Below are positions 2,276-58,407 of a stretch of 64,000 nucleotides of DNA, in pieces (position 1 is the stretch's first letter; every line of letters begins with the position of its first letter). Source of the stretch: Alphaproteobacteria bacterium (lineage in GTDB: Bacteria > Pseudomonadota > Alphaproteobacteria > Methylaequorales > Methylaequoraceae). The translations under genes were made by a program, and so were the position numbers. The notes under the pieces are model-generated. The model was not told where the DNA came from. It made no database searches and saw only the letters and a program-made list of their open reading frames with translations. The stretch is from NCBI GenBank assembly GCA_019650635.1, contig BOXE01000007.1, positions 894 through 64,893 of the forward strand, in the 5' to 3' direction.

Positions 2276-3880
2276 ATGAATTTAGAAAATCTAGACTGGT
2301 ATATTATATTTGGATACTTAGTTTGTTTAATTCTTTTATCTGTTTATTTATCAAAAGATCAAAAAAACTTGAAAGATTATTTTGTTGCATCAAGAAAACA
2401 AAAATCAAAAAAATTGGCTATTTCTATTTTAGCTACTCAATGTTCAACAAATAGTATCTTAGGTGCTCCTGCTTTTGTTGCTTTTTCTGTTGGTGGTGGT
2501 TTGGGCTGGTTGAAATATGAATTAGCAGTGCCATTATCAATGATTGCAATCATGATTTTCATTTACCCAATTTTCTATAAATTAAAGATAATTTCAATAT
2601 ACGAGTACCTTGAAAAAAGGTTTGATCTCAAAACGAGATTATTAATGAGTTCATTATTTCTTTTTGTAAGAGTTTTTGCAACTGGAGTAATTGTTTACAG
2701 TGTATCAATAGTTATTGAATTAATAACAGGTTTAAGTTTTGTGTATTCCGTTCTCATACTTGGTCTTATAACAATCGTCTACGACGTTTTAGGAGGGATA
2801 AAAGCAATAATTTACAGTGATATTATTCAAATGATAATTTTGACTGTTGTACTAATCTTTATTCTTTTTTATTTAACAAGTATTTTTGGTGGTTTTAGAT
2901 CAATGTTTAATTATTTCCCAGATCAAAGAAATGTAAATTTAAATTTCTTTGAGCATGGACTTGGTGATGGAAAAGAATTTGCTTTTTGGCCAATGTTAAT
3001 TGGAGGTTTTTTTTTGTATATGTCTTATTATGGTTGTGATCAAAGTCAAATGCAAAAAGCACTATGTGCTAAAAATCAAAATGAGGGACAAAAAGTATTT
3101 TTTTTAAATGGTATTTTCAGATTTCCTCTTGTATTGCTGTACTGTTTAATTGGTGTAGGAATAGGTTCTTATTCCCAAATTAATGCTGATTTTATTTCAA
3201 GTCTTCCAAAACAAGATGGGATACCTAACTTTAATTTGGCTGTCCCTATTTTTCTAATAGATAATTTACCAATCGGAATTGTGGGACTGACGCTAGTAGC
3301 TTTGTTTTCTGCTGCTATGTCATCCCTAGATTCAGTGTTAAATAGCTTGTCTGCAGTAACAATGGAAGATTTTGTTAAAAGAATTAAAACTTTTAGATAT
3401 CTTTCAGAAAAAAATAACCTTTTCATATCAAGAGTAATAACCTTATTTTGGGGTTCATTAGCAATTATTTTGGCTTTTTATGTTGAAGACATTTCTAGCA
3501 ATGTTCTCATTGCAATCAATAAAATAGGTTCTTTGATTAATGGACCAATTATTGGTGTATTTACATTAGGTATTTTAACAAAAAAAATTAATGGTAATAG
3601 TGCTTGCATAGGAATAATTTGTGGATTTTTATTTAACCTATACTGTTGGGTTTATTTAGTTAACGTATCTTGGCTTTGGTGGAATGCAATTGGTTTTGTT
3701 GTTACTTTAAAAATTGCAATAGTGCACGACTTTTTTTTCTCCAACTTTCAAGCAAATGAAACTTTTGTTTGGTCATTAAAATCCTTCAAAAAATTGCACT
3801 TTAATAACACTTGGAAAACTCGGTATATTATTTTGTTCATTTGGTTTATTTTAATATTTTCTTTAATTTATTTCTTCTAG
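2276..3880 (+). CDS. Sodium:solute symporter family (SSS/SLC5) transporter
   Basis: 534 aa, about 13 TM, SSS signature region GGIKAIIYSDIIQMIIL. Confidence 0.85.
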   Translation: MNLENLDWYIIFGYLVCLILLSVYLSKDQKNLKDYFVASRKQKSKKLAISILATQCSTNSILGAPAFVAFSVGGGLGWLKYELAVPLSMIAIMIFIYPIFYKLKIISIYEYLEKRFDLKTRLLMSSLFLFVRVFATGVIVYSVSIVIELITGLSFVYSVLILGLITIVYDVLGGIKAIIYSDIIQMIILTVVLIFILFYLTSIFGGFRSMFNYFPDQRNVNLNFFEHGLGDGKEFAFWPMLIGGFFLYMSYYGCDQSQMQKALCAKNQNEGQKVFFLNGIFRFPLVLLYCLIGVGIGSYSQINADFISSLPKQDGIPNFNLAVPIFLIDNLPIGIVGLTLVALFSAAMSSLDSVLNSLSAVTMEDFVKRIKTFRYLSEKNNLFISRVITLFWGSLAIILAFYVEDISSNVLIAINKIGSLINGPIIGVFTLGILTKKINGNSACIGIICGFLFNLYCWVYLVNVSWLWWNAIGFVVTLKIAIVHDFFFSNFQANETFVWSLKSFKKLHFNNTWKTRYIILFIWFILIFSLIYFF

Positions 3881-3929
3881 TGGTTTTTACGGATTTATAT
3901 AACATTTGGGTTAAAGATATTTCTTATCA

Positions 3930-4019
3930 CTGTCTCTCCTTATCTATCTGAAAGCCCTGAATTCTCATATCTTGAGCTTCTTTATTTAATAATTTTCCCT
4001 CCGAGATTACTCCCCTTAA
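3930..4019. repeat. Pyrimidine-rich intergenic element, copy C (CTGTCTCTCC-N5-TATCTGAAAGCC ... TACTCCCCTTAA)
   Basis: Same end motifs as 1396..1520; a third partial match (TATCTTAAAGCC after a pyrimidine tract) lies at 4271..4302. Confidence 0.35.
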
Positions 4020-4127
4020 TTTTCAACTAAAAGATTAACCAAATGTGAATAACACCCTCAGAGTTGATTAAGAAAAAAATAATAAAAAGGGTATAATTTT
4101 ATTAACTTTTTATTTAAGGAGTAAACA

Positions 4128-4205
4128 ATGGCTTGGACAAAACCAATGATTTCTGAAATCTCTGTTGGTCTTGAAATCAATTCTTACGCTTGCGCTGAGA
4201 AGTAG
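4128..4205 (+). CDS. pqqA: PqqA-type peptide (25 aa, MAWTKPMISEISVGLEINSYACAEK), copy 1
   Basis: AAGGAG at 4116-4121 lies 6 nt before the ATG. Trp3, Pro6 and the Glu16-x3-Tyr20 PqqA hallmark are present. An identical peptide is encoded at 18563..18640 with only synonymous differences. Too short for the ORF track. Confidence 0.75.
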   Translation: MAWTKPMISEISVGLEINSYACAEK

Positions 4206-4234
4206 TTTCGATCTATAAAGATGAAATTTTAAAA

Positions 4235-4262
4235 GCCTGGCTAAGAAGTCAGGTTTTTTTTT
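4235..4262 (+). terminator. Rho-independent terminator after pqqA-like copy 1
   Basis: Stem CCTGGCT / AGTCAGG (one G-U pair), loop AAGA, followed by T9. Confidence 0.75.
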
Positions 4263-4466
4263 GCTTAAATTAAACCTTTCCTTACCCTTTTATCTTAAAG
4301 CCTTGTCTTTTTGCCCTCTAGAGCTGATTTCATATCTACGTATGCCCTATAATAACTATTTATTGTTATCTTTATGATTTCTATATATACCTAAAATGAT
4401 AAATAGTTTTTTATAATAAATTTCTTATTTAATTTACTCTTATTTTTGCAAATCAAACACTAAATT

Positions 4467-6275
4467 ATGTCAAAAAATATTAGGAATGTAGCTATTATTG
4501 CTCATGTAGACCACGGCAAAACCACATTAATTGATTCAATACTTAAGCAAATTGGAATGTTTAGATCCAATGAAGAGATTGGGGAAAGAATAATGGATAG
4601 TGGCGATTTAGAAAAAGAACGAGGTATCACAATTTTGGCAAAGCCTACATCAATTACATGGAATGGAGTAAAAATAAATATAATAGATACACCAGGACAT
4701 GCAGATTTTGGTGGAGAGGTTGAAAGGATTTTATGTATGGCTGATGGAGTAATTTTATTAACAGATGCCTCAGAAGGACCAATGCCTCAAACAAAGTTTG
4801 TTTTAGGTAAAGCATTATCGCAGGGTTTAAAGCCAATTGTAATCATTAATAAAGTTGATAAAAAAGATAGTCGTGCAGATGTCGTTTTAGACGAAGTTTT
4901 TGATCTTTTTGTTACTCTAAATGCAAATGAGGATCAGCTTGATTTTCCAATACTATACGCCTCTGGAAAAAATGGTTGGTGTGTGAATGATCTCAAAGAT
5001 AAAAAAGAAAATTTGCACCCTCTTCTCAATTTAATAATAGAGCATGTGCCTCCTCCAAAAATTAATTCAGAAACATCTTTTTCATTTCTAGCAACCCTTC
5101 TCTCTTACGATACTTATGTTGGTAGATGTTTAATAGGAAAAGTTGAAAGTGGGAATGCCGAAGTTAATAAAATTGTTAAGGCAATAAATCTAAATCAAAA
5201 ACTTGTAGAAAAAGGCAAATTAACAAAATTATTTTCTTTTGAGGGAAATAAAAGAATTCCTGTTAATGAAATTGTTGCAGGTGATATAGCTTGTATTGCT
5301 GGTTTAACTAATGCTTCAGTTTCAGATACAATTTGTGATAATTTAGTCTCTAAACCCATAAAATCGTCTCCGATAGATCCCCCAACTATGTCAATAACCA
5401 TTACTGTTAATAACTCACCTTTTGCTGGGCAGGAGGGCAAAAAAGTGACTTCTAATAATATTAGAGAAAGGCTTTTGGCAGAAGCTGAAACAAATGTGGC
5501 AATTACTTTTAGTGAAAATGAAAATAAAGATGCTTTTGAAATTGGAGGTAGAGGCGAATTACAATTGGGAGTTTTGATCGAAACTATGCGAAGAGAAGGT
5601 TTTGAATTATCAGTTTCTAGACCAAAAGTATTATTTAAAACAGAAAAAAATATCAAATTAGAACCAGTTGAAGAGGTTGTAATTGATGTTGATGAAAGTT
5701 TTTCAAGCACAGTGATTAGCTCAATGAATAATAGAAAGTCAGAAATGATCGATATGAAAACTTCCTCAGCAAAGACTCGTATTATCTTTAAGTCACCTTC
5801 AAGGGGACTAATAGGTTATCAAAGTCAATTCTTAACAGAAACAAAAGGAACAGGTATTCTCAATAGAATATTTCATGCTTATGAACCATTTAAAGGAGAG
5901 TTTAAAGAAAAAAGAAATGGTTCTTTAATATCAACTGAGACAGGTCAAGCAGTTGCATATGCAATCTTTAATCTGCAAGATAGAGGAGTAATGTACATCA
6001 AACCGCAAACCAAAGTATACACTGGAATGGTAGTTGGTGAGCATAATAAAGAAAATGATCTTGAAATTAATGTTTTAAAAGGAAAACAACTTACTAATGT
6101 AAGAGCATCAGGTTCAGATAAAGCTGTTACTTTGGTACCACCAGTTAAGATGACATTAGAGCAAATGATTTCTTTTATAAGAGATGATGAATTACTTGAG
6201 GTAACACCTATGAACCTTAGACTTAGAAAAAAATATCTTGATTCCAATGAAAGAAAGCGTGAAAAAATTAAATGA
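4467..6275 (+). CDS. typA: Translational GTPase TypA/BipA
   Basis: AIIAHVDHGKTTL, DTPGHADFGGEVER and NKVD G-motifs; 602 aa, full-length architecture. Confidence 0.95.
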   Translation: MSKNIRNVAIIAHVDHGKTTLIDSILKQIGMFRSNEEIGERIMDSGDLEKERGITILAKPTSITWNGVKINIIDTPGHADFGGEVERILCMADGVILLTDASEGPMPQTKFVLGKALSQGLKPIVIINKVDKKDSRADVVLDEVFDLFVTLNANEDQLDFPILYASGKNGWCVNDLKDKKENLHPLLNLIIEHVPPPKINSETSFSFLATLLSYDTYVGRCLIGKVESGNAEVNKIVKAINLNQKLVEKGKLTKLFSFEGNKRIPVNEIVAGDIACIAGLTNASVSDTICDNLVSKPIKSSPIDPPTMSITITVNNSPFAGQEGKKVTSNNIRERLLAEAETNVAITFSENENKDAFEIGGRGELQLGVLIETMRREGFELSVSRPKVLFKTEKNIKLEPVEEVVIDVDESFSSTVISSMNNRKSEMIDMKTSSAKTRIIFKSPSRGLIGYQSQFLTETKGTGILNRIFHAYEPFKGEFKEKRNGSLISTETGQAVAYAIFNLQDRGVMYIKPQTKVYTGMVVGEHNKENDLEINVLKGKQLTNVRASGSDKAVTLVPPVKMTLEQMISFIRDDELLEVTPMNLRLRKKYLDSNERKREKIK

Positions 6276-6380: not shown

Positions 6381-7592
6381 ATGAAAGTTTTAGATAAAAA
6401 ACTTCCAGTCACAGTATTGTCGGGGTTCCTTGGTGCAGGTAAAACAACTCTTTTAAATCACATCCTTAACAATCGACAAGGTCTCAAGGTTGCAGTTATC
6501 GTAAACGATATGAGTGAAGTAAATATTGATGCTAATCTAGTAGAACGTGGAGGTGGTAACTTATCTCAAACTGAAGAGAAACTTGTAGAAATGAGTAATG
6601 GATGTATTTGCTGTACTTTACGTGAAGATCTTTTAATTCAAGTTAGAGAGTTAGCAAATGAAAATAAATTTGATTACCTTCTTATAGAAAGTACTGGTAT
6701 CTCTGAACCTTTGCCAGTAGCAACTACTTTTGACTTTCGTGATGAGGATGGAGCTAGTTTATCTGACGTAGCAAAACTTGATACAATGGTGACTGTTGTG
6801 GATGCTGCAAATCTTATAAAAAATTACAGCTCTACTGATTTTTTAAAAGATAAAGGAGAAAGTCTAGAAGATGATGAACGAACACTTGTTGATCTTCTTG
6901 TCGAACAGATTGAGTTTGCCAATGTTATTCTATTGAATAAAATTGATTTAATATCCTCTGAAGAATTAAAAACTGTTAATGCAATTATAAGTGGACTTAA
7001 CACTGAGGCAAAGGTCTTTGAATGCTCTCATTCGACCGTGAATCTCAAAGAAGTTGTTGGTACTGGATTGTTTGATCTTAAAAAAGCTTACACTCATCCG
7101 TTATGGGCAAAAGAACTTTATAATTTTAAAGATCATGTTCCTGAAACAGAAGAGTATGGTATCACAAGTTTCGTATATTTAGCCCGCGAACCATTTGATC
7201 CGTCAAAAATCTATAATTTCTTCAATCAAGAATGGCCTGGTGTAATGAGATCAAAAGGCTTTTTTTGGATTTCGAGTCGACCTGAATTTATTGGTGAGGT
7301 TTCTCAGGCTGGTGCGTTTGTTCGTCATCAGGGAATTGGAAGATGGTGGACAACTGTACCGAAAGATCGTTGCCAGAAGGACTAATTTTGATGCTTTGAT
7401 CGATAAATATTGGAATAAAGATTATGGTGACCGTCGACAAGAAATAGTTTTTATAGGTTTAAAGTCTGAAATGAGTGAAAAGAATATTCGAGAGAGCTAG
7501 ATGCTTGTCTGATTAAGAACTATCTTGATGATCCCAGTACATATCATAAAGCTCTAGATCCCTTTCCAGCATGGTTTAAAAAAGTAGCTTAA
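6381..7592 (+). CDS. COG0523 / CobW-family metallochaperone GTPase (two frame breaks, about 7290-7385 and about 7495)
   Basis: [13 protein letters not shown]-loop and the GCICCTL CxCC metal motif. The C-terminus continues in other frames ([25 protein letters not shown], then [27 protein letters not shown]). Confidence 0.85.
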
Positions 7593-17616: not shown

Positions 17617-18291
17617 TTACCTAATTCTGGAAAGGACAGTCCATATCATTCTCAAAGATATTAAATTTTTGAATACACCAACTACATAGGTAAAAGCTGC
17701 AGCTCGAAGAATAGAACGACATGAATCATGATAAACTGCTGGAATTTTTTTTTTAATAATTGGCATAGCTTTATTAAAACTTGCATCTAATTCCACTTCA
17801 AGTGTAACAAGATGAATAACTACCCCAATAAATAAGCTTAGTAGAATAAGTAAAATGCATACTTTAATAAGTGGAAGGTAACCTGTAGCAAATATTATTG
17901 GTAGTCCAATATAAATAACAGCAAATGCGATTTTATTAATCCATAGAGTATTTTTAACAAGTTTTGTTCTTGTAATCAGTGGAGTGTAGTTTTCAGCGTG
18001 TTGAATTGCATGACCTATTTCATGACAAATAATTGAAATAGATGTTAAACTTTTTTTTCTAAGTCTATCTTCCCCTACTTTGACTTTTCTCTGATCTAGA
18101 TCATAGTGATCGCCTATTAAGGTTTTCTCCAAACAAACGTCTTTTAATTCCAATTCTTTAATTAGCTGATTCCCAAATTCAATGCCATTAAAGGGCATAT
18201 TTGGTAAGATTTCATCATTCTTTTTAAAAACATAATTGATCCAAACAACCGGAAGAATTGATATTGATAAAAGAACAATTAGGAAAATCAT
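17617..18291 (-). CDS. Membrane-associated neutral zinc metallopeptidase (YugP-like)
   Basis: HEIGHAIQH zinc motif flanked by N- and C-terminal TM segments. Confidence 0.8.
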   Translation of the reverse strand: MIFLIVLLSISILPVVWINYVFKKNDEILPNMPFNGIEFGNQLIKELELKDVCLEKTLIGDHYDLDQRKVKVGEDRLRKKSLTSISIICHEIGHAIQHAENYTPLITRTKLVKNTLWINKIAFAVIYIGLPIIFATGYLPLIKVCILLILLSLFIGVVIHLVTLEVELDASFNKAMPIIKKKIPAVYHDSCRSILRAAAFTYVVGVFKNLISLRMIWTVLSRIR

Positions 18292-18562
18292 AGTAATTAT
18301 TTAATGTATAAATTAATATTAGCTAGATGTTTATAAATATAAATTGTTTTTCTACGTAATTCACGTTTCATTTTGTATTCAATGAGAATAAAAAATAACT
18401 GAAGATAATCTATTAACAAAATAATTATTAATAATAGTTTACATAGTTTAATAATAACTATTCATTTCAAATACATTAACAAGATATGAATATTAGAATC
18501 AGCAAACGTTAATTTAGATTTAATATATTGTATTCTAATATTAACTTTTTAAAGGATAAATA

Positions 18563-18640
18563 ATGGCTTGGACAAAACCTATGATTTCTGAAATCTCTGT
18601 AGGTCTTGAAATCAATTCTTATGCTTGCGCTGAGAAGTAG
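18563..18640 (+). CDS. pqqA: PqqA-type peptide, copy 2 (identical 25-aa product)
   Basis: Differs from 4128..4205 at only three third-codon positions (cca/cct, gtt/gta, tac/tat); AAAGGA upstream; own terminator. Confidence 0.75.
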   Translation: MAWTKPMISEISVGLEINSYACAEK

Positions 18641-18670
18641 TTTCAAACTATAGATTAATTTCTTTAAAAA

Positions 18671-18698
18671 GCCTGGCTAAGCAGTCAGGTTTTTTTTT
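18671..18698 (+). terminator. Rho-independent terminator after pqqA-like copy 2
   Basis: CCTGGCT / AGTCAGG stem, loop AAGC, T9 tail. Confidence 0.75.
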
Positions 18699-18703
18699 GT
18701 CTT

Positions 18704-19111
18704 TTAAAAATTGCAAATGAATTTAATTTTCTCGAAGTTTTCACTCATTAATTTCGGATGAATCCATTCTGAATCATCTGATTCAGTGTTTAAATTTTTT
18801 TTATATTCAAATGTTCTTCCTCTACCCATATTTGTCTTGTAATCAATTATAGTAATAACTTTAAATCTTTTATTTTTACAATCATACTTAGTATAAAACT
18901 TTGTACTTAGTTTTTCTTTTTTTTGTGCGATTTTGTAATCAAACAAACTCCAGATGTAAATAATATCATCGATTTTTTTGATTGATTCCATTTCAAAATA
19001 TTCTGTAAAAGTTTTATGCTCACGGAATACTTGCCATTTTCCGTAACAACAGGAAAACGAAAAAAAATAAAGAAATAAAAAAATAAATTTATTTTTTAGA
19101 AAAATTTGCAT
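18704..19111 (-). CDS. Hypothetical secreted protein
   Basis: Signal-peptide-like N-terminus; 135 aa; no family recognised. Confidence 0.45.
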   Translation of the reverse strand: MQIFLKNKFIFLFLYFFSFSCCYGKWQVFREHKTFTEYFEMESIKKIDDIIYIWSLFDYKIAQKKEKLSTKFYTKYDCKNKRFKVITIIDYKTNMGRGRTFEYKKNLNTESDDSEWIHPKLMSENFEKIKFICNF

Positions 19112-33085: not shown

Positions 33086-33173
33086 CGAAAATTCTCCATT
33101 GTAATTTAAGAAATTGAAAAATAATTTTGTTTTTTAATTAAATAGTGTAAGCTAATCTTATGTGGAGATTTAT

Positions 33174-35297
33174 ATGGATGATTATTCCATAAAAAAACAT
33201 TTTGGTGGTTGCCCTCACGACTGCCCCGATACGTGCGCAATGATTTATGAAGTTGCAGACAACAAACTTCTTAGCGTTAGAGGAAACCCTGATCACCCTA
33301 TGACTGACGGTGTACTTTGTGTCAAGCTCAAAGACTACGAAAAAAGACACTACCATCCAGATCGTTTATTATATCCTCATAAACGTGTTGGAAAAAAGGG
33401 AAAGAAAGAATTTGAAAGAATTTCTTGGGATGAAGCACTAGAAACAATAACCTTAAAATGGAAGTCTCTAATTAATGAATATGGGCCTGAATCAATCATT
33501 CCGTATAGTTATTTGGGAAATCAAGGTTTAGTTCATGGTTTAAATGGAGGTGATTCTTTCTTTAATGCCCTTGGCGCGACTGTTTGTGAGAGAACTTTTT
33601 GCGGGGAAGGTTCATGTACAGCTTGGTTAACCACGATAGGTCCAACAGCTGGCTTAGATCCGGAAAGTTACATCCACAGTAAATACATTGTTATTTGGGC
33701 TTGTAACAGTGTAAGTACCAATCTTCATCATTGGACAATCATTCAAGAAGCTAAAAAAAGAGGAGCCAAAGTTGTAGTAATTGATTCATATAAATCTAGA
33801 ACTGCTAAACAAGCTGATTGGCATATCGAACCTATCCCTGGTTCAGACGGAGCCTTGGCAGTTGCCATGATAAATCATATTATTTATAACGATCTAACAG
33901 ACATGGATTATATAAATAATCACACAAATGGATTTGAAGAGTTAAAAGAGCATGTTAAAGATAAAGATCCTAAATGGGCGTCTAAAATAACTGGAATTAG
34001 TGAAGAAGATATTAAAAAATTGGCTCAAGAAATTGCTACAGTTCAACCAGTTGGAATAAGAATTGGAGTTGCACTTGAGAGACATTATGGAGGTGGGCAG
34101 ACAATTAGAGCTGTTACCTGTATACCAGCATTAACTGGTGCATGGAAACATGTTGGTGGAGGAATCACTCAATTTCCAGTGTGGGAACATCCGTACAAAT
34201 TTGATGTTATATGCAGACCAGATTTGATCCCTAAAGGTACGAGAGTTGTAAACGCTCTTCAGATTGGAAGAGCCTTACTAGGGGAAAATATAGAAAAGGA
34301 CAAACCAATTATGTCCATGATGTGCTGGAACGCTAACCCTGTTACTCAAGCAGCCGAAACGGAGAAAATAATTAAAGGTTTAAAGAGAGAAGATTTATTC
34401 TTAGTCTCTGCTGAACATTTTATTTCTGACACAGCATCTTACGCAGACATTCTTCTACCCGCCACAATGGGTGCAGAACATGAAGATATGATATTATCTT
34501 GGGGTCACTTATACCTAACATACAATGAGAAATGTGTTGATGCTCCTGGAGAAGCTTTACCAAACTACGAAATATTCAGGAGGTTAGCAAAAAAGATGGA
34601 TTTAAAGCAAGATCAATTCAGTTGGAGTGATGAAAAATGTTTAGAAAACTATGTGGATTGGTCAGCACCTGCATGTGAGGGAATTACTCTTGAAAAATTG
34701 AAGGAAAAAGGGTTTGCAAGATTAAATGTTGGTTGCAAAGATACACGAGCACCCCACAAAGATGGTAAGTTCCCTACAGAATCAGGTAAATGTGAGTTTA
34801 TTCTAAAAGATGTGAAAAATTTTGTTGCCGGTCCATTCAGACAAATGTACGAGGATTATCAACCAGGTCAAGACCTCCCTCCTCTTCCGGATTATGTTCC
34901 TCAACTTGAGTCAAAACAAACTAACCCGCAACTTGCCAAAAAATATCCTTTAAACGTAATAACTCCAAAAAGTCATGCATTTTTAAATTCGTGTTATGCA
35001 AACATGACGGACAAGCAGAGGGTTCAAGGAGACCAATTTGTTCTTATAAGCGAAATTGATTCAAAACAAAGAAATATTAAAGATGGTGATAATGTAAAAG
35101 TATTTAATGACAGAGGTTCCTATAAAGGTGTTGCTAAAATAACATCTGATGTTTCGTCAGGTATTGTCGTTTCAACGCTCGGATATTGGAGACAACTCAA
35201 CGATGGAACAGTTAACAGTATAAGCTCAGCTAATTTAGCAGATATGGGAAACGCTCCAACTTTCTCAGATAATCTAGTTGAAGTAATAAAAATATAA
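33174..35297 (+). CDS. Molybdopterin (bis-MGD) oxidoreductase, stand-alone catalytic subunit
   Basis: N-terminal CPHDCPDTC Fe-S motif, MopB and C-terminal barrel layout. ATG 33174 is preferred over the GTG at 33162 because GGAG lies 6 nt upstream. Confidence 0.85.
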   Translation: MDDYSIKKHFGGCPHDCPDTCAMIYEVADNKLLSVRGNPDHPMTDGVLCVKLKDYEKRHYHPDRLLYPHKRVGKKGKKEFERISWDEALETITLKWKSLINEYGPESIIPYSYLGNQGLVHGLNGGDSFFNALGATVCERTFCGEGSCTAWLTTIGPTAGLDPESYIHSKYIVIWACNSVSTNLHHWTIIQEAKKRGAKVVVIDSYKSRTAKQADWHIEPIPGSDGALAVAMINHIIYNDLTDMDYINNHTNGFEELKEHVKDKDPKWASKITGISEEDIKKLAQEIATVQPVGIRIGVALERHYGGGQTIRAVTCIPALTGAWKHVGGGITQFPVWEHPYKFDVICRPDLIPKGTRVVNALQIGRALLGENIEKDKPIMSMMCWNANPVTQAAETEKIIKGLKREDLFLVSAEHFISDTASYADILLPATMGAEHEDMILSWGHLYLTYNEKCVDAPGEALPNYEIFRRLAKKMDLKQDQFSWSDEKCLENYVDWSAPACEGITLEKLKEKGFARLNVGCKDTRAPHKDGKFPTESGKCEFILKDVKNFVAGPFRQMYEDYQPGQDLPPLPDYVPQLESKQTNPQLAKKYPLNVITPKSHAFLNSCYANMTDKQRVQGDQFVLISEIDSKQRNIKDGDNVKVFNDRGSYKGVAKITSDVSSGIVVSTLGYWRQLNDGTVNSISSANLADMGNAPTFSDNLVEVIKI

Positions 35298-36085: not shown

Positions 36086-38245
<2,160 letters not shown>

Positions 38246-53700: not shown

Positions 53701-54871
53701 TCAAACTTGATAAGATTGTTGTTGTAAAAATTTTATTAAATTGAACTTGCTTAGATTTTTAATAATTACGTTCTTTAATTCACTAATACCACTACCGTCA
53801 ACTGCAGAAATCATTACAGATTTCTCACTCAACGAATTGTGGTAATTTATTTTATTTTTGACTAAATCAGTTTTATTTATTACTTCTATTATTCTTTCAT
53901 CATCTTTTTGAACTCCAATTTCTTCAAGTATTCTTAAAACCTCATTTTTTTGATCAAAATACTCTGAGTCTGAAATATCTCTGACATGAAGTATCAAATC
54001 AGAATTTATAATTTCATTAAGTGTTGATTTAAACGAGTCAATTAAAGTTGTTGGTAAATCTCTAATAAAACCTACGGTATCAATAAAATTTAAATTAAAA
54101 CCATTTATGTAACCATTTCTTATAGTTGAGTCCAAAGATGCAAATAACATGTTTTTTGATAATACTTTAGATTTTGTAATTAGATTAAATAATGTTGATT
54201 TCCCAGAATTTGTATAACCTACTAATGAAATAATAGGTATTTTATTTTTTATTCTTCTATATCTTTGAATATTTCTTATTTTATCAATTTTATTATTTTA
54301 ATTTTAGTCTGTTAATTCTCTCTGTTAATTGGCGTCTATCTGATTCAATTTGTTTTTCACCAGGGCCTCCCATAAATCCAGCTCCACCTCTTTGTCTTTC
54401 TAGGTGAGTCCATGATCTTACAAGTCTACTCTTTTGGAATTTTAAGCTAGCTAATAAAACACTAAGTTTCCCCTCATTTGATTTGGCTCGAGAACCAAAT
54501 ATTTCTATAATTAAACCTGTTCTATCTATAATTTTACAGTTTGTTGCTTTTTCTAAGTTTCTTTGTTGTATAGGGGACAGATTTGTATTTAAAAATATCA
54601 ATTCGGCATTAAGGTCAATTACTTTTTGTTTCAAAAAAACAACATAACCAGATTTAAGATAGGTTTTTGGATTTACATTGTCTATCCCAACTAGAGACGA
54701 ATCAATGCAATTTAAATTGATTGCTTGAACCAACCTTATGGCTTCTTCTAGAAGTATTTCTTTTGAGCCTCGGGATCTTTTTATATATGGATGAATAACT
54801 ATCGTTTGTGTATCATTCATGAATTTGACATTTAACGAGTTCATTGTACATTTTATTAATACTTGAGTCAT
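53701..54871 (-). CDS. hflX: GTPase HflX (frame break about 54290)
   Basis: HflX N-domain (ERQRGGAGFMGGPGEKQIE) and G-domain (LVGYTNSGKSTLFN, DTVGFI, NKTD). Confidence 0.85.
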
Positions 54872-55665: not shown

Positions 55666-57047
55666 TAAAAAAACTCTATATTTACTTCTGAATATTTTTC
55701 TATTTCTTTGATAGATGACGGTTTAGAAAAAATTATTAACTTATCATTTACATATATAGTTGTGTTTTCATCTGGAAAAATCAATTTCTTATTTCTAACG
55801 ATACCACCAATAACCACACCATCTGGCATATCTAAATCAATTATTTTTTTATCAGCAAATTTGGTAGTAGGTAAAATCTCTATTTCCATTATTTCACCTC
55901 TGTCATTTCCAAAATCGTGAACCTCTTTTACTTTTCCTCTTCTCACATACTGTAAAATGGCTGAAGTTGTGATATTACCAGGATGGATAAGAACATCTAA
56001 ATCAAGCTTTTTTGACAAATTTCTATAATTTGTGTTATTAACGATCGCCATTGTTCTTTTGCATCCAAGATCTTTAGCCAAAAGTGAAGAGAAAATATTT
56101 ACCTCATCATCATCTGTTACAGTTATAATTGCTTCCGAATCGGATGCACCAGCATCTCTTAGTAGATTAGAATCGATTGCGTCTCCGCATAAAATAGTAC
56201 TTTGTTTTGAGAGCTTAGAAGAAATATCTTTTGTCCTCTCTAAATTATTATCAATAATTTTACAATTGATATCAGGATAGTCCTTCTCTAAAATTTTTAA
56301 AATATTCAAACCAATATTTCCAGCACCTACAACAATTAATTTTCTATTTTCTTGAGGTTTAATTCCAAAGACTCTAAGTGCTCTTAAAATATCATCATTT
56401 TTAATACAAATATAAATATCATCACCAGGATAAAGCTCAACTTTTCCAGTAGGAATTATAATCTCGTCTTTTCTAAAAATTGATAAAATCTTTACCTCTA
56501 GACCAGAAAAAATTCCTGGAAGCATTCGTAAAGGAGTATTTATTATTGGGCACGAATCATTTATCGATATTCCAATTATTCTTGCTATTTTATCACCTAA
56601 ATAGAATGAATCAAAAGCACCTGGAGTATTTAATTTTCTTATAATATCTTTTGCAACCTCTAACTCCGGTGAAATTATTGCATCAACATCAATTTTTCCT
56701 GGAGAGAAAATTTTCTTTGCATAATTTGACTTTAAATATTCAGATTCTTTAATTCTTGCTACTTTTAAAGGGATTTTAAATAAATGATTTGCAAGTTCAC
56801 ATGAAATAATATTAAGTTCATCACTTTCTGTAACTGCAATAATCATGTCAGCTTCATCAGCACCTGCTTTCTCAAGAATTTCTGGATGGGTTGTTTTTCC
56901 ACAAACACTTTTCAAATCCACACTTTTATTTAACATCCTTAAACTCGACTCTGATTTGTCGATGATTGTTACATCATTATCCTCGTAAACAAGCTGTTTA
57001 GCAATATTAGAACCAATTTCACCCGCACCGCAAACTATAATTTTCAT
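55665..57047 (-). CDS. trkA: Trk potassium uptake system NAD-binding subunit
   Basis: Two RCK/KTN modules (MKIIVCGAGEIG.., LIVVGAGNIG..). Confidence 0.9.
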   Translation of the reverse strand: MKIIVCGAGEIGSNIAKQLVYEDNDVTIIDKSESSLRMLNKSVDLKSVCGKTTHPEILEKAGADEADMIIAVTESDELNIISCELANHLFKIPLKVARIKESEYLKSNYAKKIFSPGKIDVDAIISPELEVAKDIIRKLNTPGAFDSFYLGDKIARIIGISINDSCPIINTPLRMLPGIFSGLEVKILSIFRKDEIIIPTGKVELYPGDDIYICIKNDDILRALRVFGIKPQENRKLIVVGAGNIGLNILKILEKDYPDINCKIIDNNLERTKDISSKLSKQSTILCGDAIDSNLLRDAGASDSEAIITVTDDDEVNIFSSLLAKDLGCKRTMAIVNNTNYRNLSKKLDLDVLIHPGNITTSAILQYVRRGKVKEVHDFGNDRGEIMEIEILPTTKFADKKIIDLDMPDGVVIGGIVRNKKLIFPDENTTIYVNDKLIIFSKPSSIKEIEKYSEVNIEFF

Positions 57048-58407
57048 TTTTCTAATTCTGTTTTGATGTTAAGTGATTTAAGTTTTCTGTAAATTGCAGT
57101 TCGTTCCATTCCAATTTCTTTAGCCATTTTTGTTACATTATATTTGAATTTTTCTAAATTAAATAGGAGATATTTTTTTTCAAAATCTTCTCTTGCACTC
57201 TTAATAGACATATTCATAGAGTCTTCAAAAAAAATATTCTTTTTATCAACAAGATTGGTACCTAAACCAATAACATCACTTAAATTAATTTCGTCATTAT
57301 CTATATTATTCAACATTACAATTATCCACTCTACAAACTTTTTAAGTTGAAAAATATTTCTAAAATAATCTAAATCAATCAAATATGAAATAACTTCAGT
57401 GGAAAATTTCTTTATTTTCAGACCTTTTTCAATAAATATCTCAGATGCAAAAATTTCTATTAATTCTCCCATATCATTTTTTCTATTAGATAGACTTGGT
57501 ATTTCTATGATTGTAAAATTTAATTTTTTTAATAAATCTTTTCTTAAACTTTGCTTGCAAGATTTTTATTTGACGAAGCAATTACTCTTAAATCTAAAAC
57601 ATTAGGATTTAATGCTCCAATTCTATAATATTTTTTTTCATCAAGAACTCTTAATATTTGTCCTTGTAATTTATCTGCTAAAGATGTGATATTCTTAAAA
57701 TATATAGTCCCATTATTTACTTCGTCTAGCAAACCTAATTCTTTGATTACTTGATTATCTTCAGATCCAAAAAGTTGTTCTTCAAATATTTTTTTATCTA
57801 ATCTACAATCTATTGATTTAAAATATTTTTTTGATCTATGAGAATAGTCATGTATTTTTGATGCAACAAATTCTTTACCACTTCCTTCGTCACCAATAAG
57901 TACAATATTAGAATCAGTTTTACTGACTTCTTTAATTTTTTTTTCAAGGAGTTTTGAAGATTTTGAAATTGCAACAATTTCAGAATCCAAATCTTTTCTT
58001 GAAAATTTTTCAATTTTCTTTTTTAAAATATAATTCTCTATTGCTTTCTTAATTTTGAAAATAAGTAGATCACTATCAAATGGTTTCTCTATGAAATCAT
58101 ATGCTCCCTTTTTAATAGAATTTACTGCTGTTTCAATATTCCCATGACCACTAATCATGATGACTGGAATATTGTGATCAATTCTTTGAAGTTTTTCTAG
58201 AGCTTGAAAACCATCAAATTTTGAATTATTCAACCAAATATCCAATAGAACAAGAGAAAATGATTTTTGTTTAAAAATCTCTAAACCCTTTTCTGAAGTA
58301 TTAGCTTTATCACATGAATATCCAATATCATTCAGAAGACCACTAAGTTGGTTACAAATATCTGGTTCATCATCAATGATTAAAATTTTACTATCTTTAA
58401 ATTTCAT
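57044..58407 (-). CDS. ntrX: Response regulator NtrX (sigma54-activator-like), frame break about 57545-57580
   Basis: Receiver domain (ILIIDDEPDI..LLDIWL), AAA+ core (LIGDEGSGKE), C-terminal HTH (MERTAIYRKLKSLNI). Confidence 0.8.

Follow-up and report, generated by a model that had tools for sequence, protein, structure and literature searches.

What does a gene for PqqA, the ribosomally made peptide turned into the cofactor pyrroloquinoline quinone (PQQ), do on its own between unrelated genes: does it serve a pathway encoded elsewhere in the genome, or is its product used differently? The question is raised by a 25-codon gene in the 64-kb stretch of DNA analysed here (the window), which the initial annotation had described as an unlisted, PqqA-type gene with its own ribosome-binding site and terminator. 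The reading frame (copy 1, 4128..4205, plus strand) starts with the ATG at 4128, ends with the TAG at 4203-4205 and translates as MAWTKPMISEISVGLEINSYACAEK. A Shine-Dalgarno sequence, AAGGAG (4116..4121, plus strand), precedes the start codon by 6 nt and is kept in L001-L003, L006 and L339-L343. Start, stop, peptide, ribosome-binding site and terminator were all confirmed in the sequence. The two models named as a check also agree with the assignment: MAWTKPMISEISVGLEINSYACAEK scores 36.7 bits against TIGR02107 (cut-off 20, E = 2.6e-9) and 30.8 bits against PF08042 (cut-off 21.1). Read directly, and with the synonymous-only variation described below, copy 1 is a real but unannotated gene of 25 codons plus stop.

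The 25-residue peptide, within the length range of the family (about 20-40 residues), contains the Glu-x-x-x-Tyr motif, whose Glu16 and Tyr20 are the residues turned into PQQ, and this motif is invariant in 183/183 collected copies. The closest plasmid-borne matches are the annotated pqqA genes of Azospirillum and of roseobacters (64-67% identity), which fits the likeness to alphaproteobacterial PqqA stated in the initial annotation. Canonical, operon-linked PqqA from Klebsiella, Methylorubrum and Gluconobacter is alike in size, in its Trp-x-x-Pro leader and in its Glu-x-x-x-Tyr core; unlike these, the window genes are not adjacent to pqqB and lie alone between unrelated genes. The missing pqqB neighbour does not exclude membership of the PqqA family because bona fide PqqA copies in Methylophilaceae are unlinked as well.

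The signals around copy 1 bear on whether it forms its own transcription unit. A promoter-like sequence upstream, TTAAGA-18-TATAAT (4068..4097, plus strand), matches the consensus at 10 of 12 positions; it is weak evidence because such sites are not enriched in this AT-rich DNA (29% GC), with 5 found against 4.9 expected from shuffles. Downstream lies an intrinsic terminator (4231..4262, plus strand), built from a CCTGGCT/AGTCAGG stem (4236-4242 and 4247-4253) extended by A/U pairs, an AAGA loop and a run of nine T (4254-4262). Its predicted fold has an energy of -17.4 kcal/mol (z = -3.3 against shuffles), and a terminator scan of positions 3600-4700 found this hairpin as the sole terminator-like site. 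An SSF symporter gene lies upstream on the same strand and typA lies downstream. A monocistronic transcript is plausible for copy 1, with read-through from the symporter gene as the alternative. The segment carrying the symporter gene and copy 1 (window 2276-4262) is missing upstream of typA in the single-cell genomes AG-908-F15 (L004) and AG-892-F10 (L005), whose TypA proteins are 99% identical to that of the window; copy 1 is therefore dispensable. The same place is where one long-read contig ends; together with the absence from two SAGs, this marks a strain-variable spot.

Where a single gene had been reported, a motif scan revealed a second one. Copy 2 (18563..18640, plus strand) encodes the same peptide and differs from copy 1 by three synonymous changes, at Pro6 (CCA/CCT), Val13 (GTT/GTA) and Tyr20 (TAC/TAT). 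A Shine-Dalgarno-like AAAGGA, read directly at 18551..18556 on the plus strand, lies 6 nt before its ATG, and an intrinsic terminator (18666..18698, plus strand) repeats the stem of copy 1 with an AAGC loop and a T-run. One terminator was found here against 0.0 expected from shuffles, with a folding energy of -15.3 kcal/mol (z = -3.4). The two copies have the terminator hairpin in common, and their upstream regions and the spacers between stop codon and hairpin have diverged. Both neighbours of copy 2, a Zn_peptidase_2 gene (17617-18291) and an Adhesin_E gene (18704-19111), lie on the minus strand, so that copy 2 must be transcribed on its own. The monocistronic arrangement claimed at the outset is thus well supported for copy 2, and for copy 1 it stays at plausible. 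As an observation apart, the Zn_peptidase_2 gene (PF04298) is divergent from copy 2 at a distance of 272 nt, and the same pairing with pqqA recurs in L124, L180 and L181. A PqqF/G-type peptidase was not seen in the operon loci described below, and a candidate for the PqqA-trimming protease could be the Zn_peptidase_2 protein.

The rest of the pathway lies outside the window, as the initial annotation had noted. Profile HMMs of PqqB, PqqC, PqqD, PqqE and the XoxF-type dehydrogenase, built from seven related lineages, gave no match at E <= 1 among all six-frame ORFs of the 64 kb; the CxxxCxxC motif occurs in no long ORF of the window; and Pfam searches of the neighbours and large ORFs returned no PQQ-related domain. 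With HMM, motif and Pfam searches all empty, the statement that the 64 kb holds no pqqB/C/D/E, radical-SAM or PQQ-dehydrogenase gene stands. The domains assigned to the neighbours of the two copies are an SSF symporter, TypA, CobW, Zn_peptidase_2, Adhesin_E, CobC and CobS, and other genes of the window include symporters, fasciclin, DUF6279, CobT/CobS/CobC, a TonB receptor, a molybdopterin oxidoreductase and an M32 peptidase. A tRNA scan found no tRNA genes in the 64-kb window.

The organism was placed through TypA and through nucleotide identity. The TypA protein of the window, 2 aa shorter than its homologues, has no exact full-length match on record. In its best segment it matches the TypA encoded on contig NODE_2 (CACCYL010000002.1) of AG-903-D15 at 100% identity; it is 97-99% identical to those of five further GORG SAGs, 89% to that of the MAG MED652 and about 60% to those of Pelagibacteraceae. 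Across the window, nucleotide identity is 97.6% to AG-903-D15, 98.0% to AG-908-P05, 94.1% to AG-892-F10 and 78.9% to MED652. A SAR11 affiliation was considered and rejected, Pelagibacteraceae TypA being just ~60% identical. An AEGEAN-169/HIMB59 affiliation was discarded as well: the paper on that clade mentions neither methanol nor xoxF nor the SAGs compared here, and the lineage proved to be TMED127. The lineage is the order TMED127, genus GCA-2691245, and the names Methylaequorales and Methylaequor have been proposed by Glass, Warters and Alajlan (2025, PMC12542740). It carries the NCBI label 'Rickettsiales' (PMC12542740) and comprises streamlined, probably obligate, lanthanide-dependent marine methylotrophs (PMC12542740); the guess of a streamlined genome, made from the letters of the window, was right.

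Genome size was touched on separately. Three long-read contigs, myrmidon_3__contig_13095 (L340; 1,098,035 nt), 21550_4__contig_8014 (L356; 1,099,319 nt) and 21550_4__contig_817 (L347; 1,097,070 nt), are of closely similar length, and the first two, both with window-type genes, have different genomic start points. This suggests that the three are closed genomes of ~1.1 Mb, below the ~1.5 Mb of the literature; a fourth window-type contig measures 1.53 Mb.

To find the peptide in other settings, metagenome contigs were scanned with a degenerate back-translation of its core and the neighbouring genes were clustered. Three kinds of context emerged: operon, orphan and phage-like. In the operon context, the identical peptide is encoded directly before pqqBCDE on about a dozen contigs among the matches listed. 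The enzymes are assigned by family models: pqqB by TIGR02108 (381 bits, cut-off 245), pqqC by TIGR02111 (345 bits, cut-off 240), pqqE by TIGR02109 (575 bits, cut-off 381) and pqqD by PF05402. The operon is flanked by genes for a PedC-type permease, a MoxJ-like binding protein, a methanol-related cytochrome c and pseudoazurin, and the locus as retrieved through the closest PqqC proteins also includes a 610-aa PQQ-repeat dehydrogenase and pterin genes. It was found in the SAGs CACMON01, CACACI01 and CABZDX01, in the MAGs NHGC01 and JAOOJU01 and on three long-read contigs. In AG-343-F10 (CACACI01, L345), which belongs to the genus of the window, GCA-2691245 (Table S3, PMC12542740), the identical peptide lies directly upstream of pqqBCDE and the 610-aa PQQ dehydrogenase, with the domains confirmed. 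The use of TAG rather than TAA as stop codon was tried as a marker of orphan against operon copies and rejected, since the typA-linked orphans L340-L343 use TAA.

The genomic location of the enzymes follows from published tables. For AG-903-D15, a 'full' methylotrophy island is recorded on CACCYL010000001.1 (Table S3, PMC12542740), a contig other than its window-like NODE_2, which puts the pathway in another part of the genome. A full island is also recorded for AG-892-F10, on CACMWI010000001.1, truncated ones for AG-337-K15 and MED652, and none for three of the six closest SAGs, which are 60-75% complete (Table S3, PMC12542740). The island comprises genes for methanol oxidation, PQQ biosynthesis, tetrahydromethanopterin and lanthanide uptake and occurs in 44/64 genomes from eight genera, once per genome (PMC12542740). 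That one genome encodes the precursor copies and PqqB/C/D/E was found by proxy, through the table entry for AG-903-D15 and the operon of AG-343-F10. Both findings support the first of the two readings offered initially, a remote precursor for a pathway encoded elsewhere, and none of the conditions that the initial annotation had named as refuting it applies.

Direct linkage was also sought. Among the loci compared, the operon and window-type genes were not found on one contig or in one assembly, and operon loci and typA loci had no orthologues in common. Base composition and GC3 did not discriminate in linking operon to window, nor did tetranucleotide signatures, in which Pelagibacteraceae scored as high as the window's own clade. 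An exact match of a window protein, SSF465, lies on 21550_4__contig_8014, and the operon of that sample lies on 21550_4__contig_817. The link between operon and window consequently rests on a published table entry for a SAG that shares ~98% identity with the window: the genome-wide search for pqqBCDE that had been proposed led to an island in the nearest SAG, with the window's own assembly not tied to an operon.

The coding constraint on the peptide was examined in 16 copies that were retrieved via TypA or PqqC, not via the peptide itself, to avoid circularity. They represent 10 distinct DNAs from lineages 70-76% identical in nucleotides, and all encode one peptide. Every variable site (9/9) falls at a third codon position and is synonymous, a distribution with a chance of about (1/3)^9 if there were no codon structure. 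In the same lineages amino-acid identity is 78% for PqqB, 82% for PqqC, 67.5% for PqqD and 90% for PqqE; the peptide is constrained more strongly than any enzyme of the pathway. Orphan and operon copies are under like constraint, as expected if one enzyme set recognises both.

The orphans are also held together by their 3' ends. Nearly all cellular orphans, whatever their neighbours, have a GC-rich hairpin followed by a T-run 25-35 nt past the ORF. In 23 distinct copies of this terminator, 96% of the cells of the stem alignment are paired, three of seven stem pairs have changed on both sides (for example U-A to C-G), and the covariation observed is reached by 0/500 shuffles. Among the metagenome matches listed, orphans outnumber operon copies by ~3:1 and occur in at least eight gene contexts.

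These patterns bear on the proposal that the window copies are decaying, functionless duplicates, short ORFs that survived by chance. Dispensability of copy 1 in some strains and the many broken genes of the window assembly would suit it; the 16 copies, with 0 amino-acid against 9 synonymous changes, the retained ribosome-binding site and the compensatory changes in the terminator stem do not, and we hold decay to be extremely unlikely. The substitution pattern contradicts it.

The same data allow a different proposal to be weighed, that the orphans yield a PqqA-like peptide with another fate, or a short abundant RNA with a regulatory role, independently of PqqBCDE. Its best footing is at the nucleotide level: synonymous sites are themselves unusually conserved, with 1.9 differences per 75 nt on average (L321-L347 and the window) in lineages 70-76% identical, which hints at codon-bias or RNA-level constraint, and the 3' stretch and hairpin common to the orphans are unlike those of the operon copy, whose hairpin before pqqB differs. 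Part of this conservation, however, can be put down to strong codon bias at a genomic GC content of 29%. The operon-linked copy of the genus encodes the same peptide, all variation is codon-structured, Rfam has no match in the window at gathering thresholds, and no alternative maturase, radical-SAM gene or transporter adjoins either copy. A separate function is thus very unlikely, and the second reading of the initial annotation, a PqqA-like peptide put to a different use, is unneeded and without support. The window copies are best read as PqqA precursors for the remote enzymes.

The third context, the phage-like one, raises the possibility that the orphans arrived with viruses. A degenerate pattern found the same PqqA type on at least 120 uncultivated IMG/VR viral contigs (L201-L320), and phage-like metagenome loci with PqqA include L108, L116, L127, L132, L154 and L160. 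Among the matches listed, 67 viral loci carry the exact core with leaders that differ from that of the cellular peptide, and all viral variants tested pass TIGR02107. A holin-type gene lies within 200 nt in 41 of these 67 loci, again among the matches listed; other viral copies adjoin NifU-like and sometimes IscA-like genes. These lysis-module neighbourhoods, together with the position of copy 1 in a segment missing from close relatives, would be in keeping with orphans that are recent phage-derived insertions rather than host-evolved dosage copies. Several observations speak against such an origin: the leader MAWTKPMIS of the cellular peptide occurs in 0/67 viral peptides among the matches listed, viral copies have no orphan-type terminator, and the neighbours of the window copies are ordinary cellular genes (SSF symporter, typA, Zn peptidase, cob genes). 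In a relative with 71.5% nucleotide identity (L008), a module like that of copy 2 is present, though rearranged in position, so the orphan module is old. A recent origin from phages is highly unlikely, and the cellular orphans are better described as host genes.

What the viral copies do is a question in its own right. No PqqA-like match was present in 50,697 GenBank phage records, even at E = 10, and virus-borne pqqA has been reported once, from freshwater methylotroph phages of Lake Baikal (Coutinho et al. 2020, 10.1101/2020.04.02.019802). There, pqqA is detached from pqqBCDE and supplied in trans, a notion that extends to the marine viral contigs. The window copies differ from the Lake Baikal case in their cellular context, and the marine viral copies in being of alphaproteobacterial type and in coming from uncultivated contigs only. 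The contigs may, tentatively, derive from phages of TMED127/Methylaequorales or close relatives that bring the precursor because PqqA supply limits PQQ, a proposal that we regard as possible though doubtful. If it were true, host mini-genes and viral copies would be two answers to one bottleneck, and pqqA would be a marker by which viruses could be connected with the methylotroph that is transcriptionally most active in the ocean.

Why, then, would a cell keep extra copies of a precursor gene? Very probably, the stand-alone copies raise the supply of precursor to a remote, single pqqBCDE set that has a third, operon-linked pqqA of its own. The present analysis shows that the copies belong to the PqqA family, are under coding constraint, encode the same peptide as the operon copy of the genus and have a conserved terminator, and that the window lacks pqqBCDE; for the full island of the nearest genome and for XoxF5 expression we rely on the literature. 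From these we infer that the copies are transcribed and processed by the remote enzymes, and infer likewise the rationale of gene dosage. Two copies are present in 64 kb and an operon-linked copy exists in the genus, which makes a third copy probable in the window's own genome.

In the proposed mechanism, each mini-gene, with its own ribosome-binding site and strong terminator, would give a short transcript, and copy 2 necessarily has its own promoter. PqqD would bind the peptide and the radical-SAM enzyme PqqE would cross-link Glu16 and Tyr20; the cross-linked peptide would then be trimmed and finished by PqqB and PqqC. PqqA is a substrate rather than a catalyst, and every PQQ molecule costs the cell one peptide. 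Because PqqA is used one-for-one while xoxF5 makes up 16-57% of transcripts, extra copies would raise supply. That range refers to mapped transcripts in AG-892-F10, where expression of a PQQ-dependent glucose dehydrogenase is high as well (PMC12542740), and pqqBCDE is transcribed in situ at roughly 10^2-10^3 TPM (PMC12542740).

The closest analogue in logic and layout is that of the Methylophilaceae, which have 3-12 pqqA copies for one pqqBCDE set (Beck et al. 2014, PMC4109929). As in that family, where unlinked pqqA genes and a single pqqBCDE accompany very high expression of PQQ dehydrogenases, the dispersed copies would increase precursor supply by gene dosage. Two features set the present case apart: every orphan here has a conserved, covarying terminator, and the peptide is identical across genera. 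In Prochlorococcus, the procA genes for prochlorosin precursors are dispersed and there is one ProcM. The likeness lies in many unlinked short precursor genes, a streamlined marine genome and one remote enzyme set; prochlorosin copies, however, are diverse and give many products, whereas the window copies are identical and serve one cofactor.

These genes fill a gap in annotation. The term 'pqqA' is absent from the text and gene tables of the paper on the lineage, in which pqqB, C, D and E are listed (PMC12542740). Its transcript table passes straight from pqqB to lutG across a gap of ~280 nt (CACMWI010000001.1, 60030-60311, in AG-892-F10), which is where the operon pqqA lies. Operon-linked pqqA is uncalled in most public gene calls (L321-L324, L344-L348), with the NCBI annotation of the MAG NHGC01 as the exception. 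This is an annotation gap and not a new system, because spare pqqA copies are already known from other methylotrophs; the arrangement is biologically ordinary for a methylotroph, and how PQQ is made is unchanged. Its interest comes from the organism, an abundant methanol oxidiser of the ocean: in oligotrophic surface seawater, the methanol-dehydrogenase genes with the highest transcription were recently traced to TMED127/Methylaequorales. Once the operon-linked and dispersed pqqA genes are included, the PQQ pathway in the model of the lineage is complete, and attention is drawn to short, possibly very abundant transcripts that current read-mapping tables ignore. The result also yields the testable idea that precursor dosage tracks XoxF5 load, and the viral copies may give access to phages of TMED127/Methylaequorales.

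Some further features of the window were noted. Several genes are shorter than their homologues (TypA, 602 against 604 aa, 4467-6275; CobW, 334 against 404 aa, 6381-7385), and KatG (36086-38224), HflX (53701-54871) and NtrX (57044-58407) are each in two pieces; these look like indel errors of long-read assembly, not biology. Between 41018 and 48394, UmuD/UmuC-like genes adjoin a ligase-associated DNA-damage cassette, as judged by eye, with an ATP-dependent ligase, a metallo-beta-lactamase-fold nuclease (Pfam confirms RMMBL only), an Lhr-type helicase and a phosphoesterase; such a repair cassette is a notable investment for a genome of ~1.1-1.5 Mb. Finally, the gene at 33162-35297 (plus strand) encodes a 711-aa molybdopterin oxidoreductase with an Fe4S4 domain, which may be the formate dehydrogenase that a methylotroph would be expected to have.
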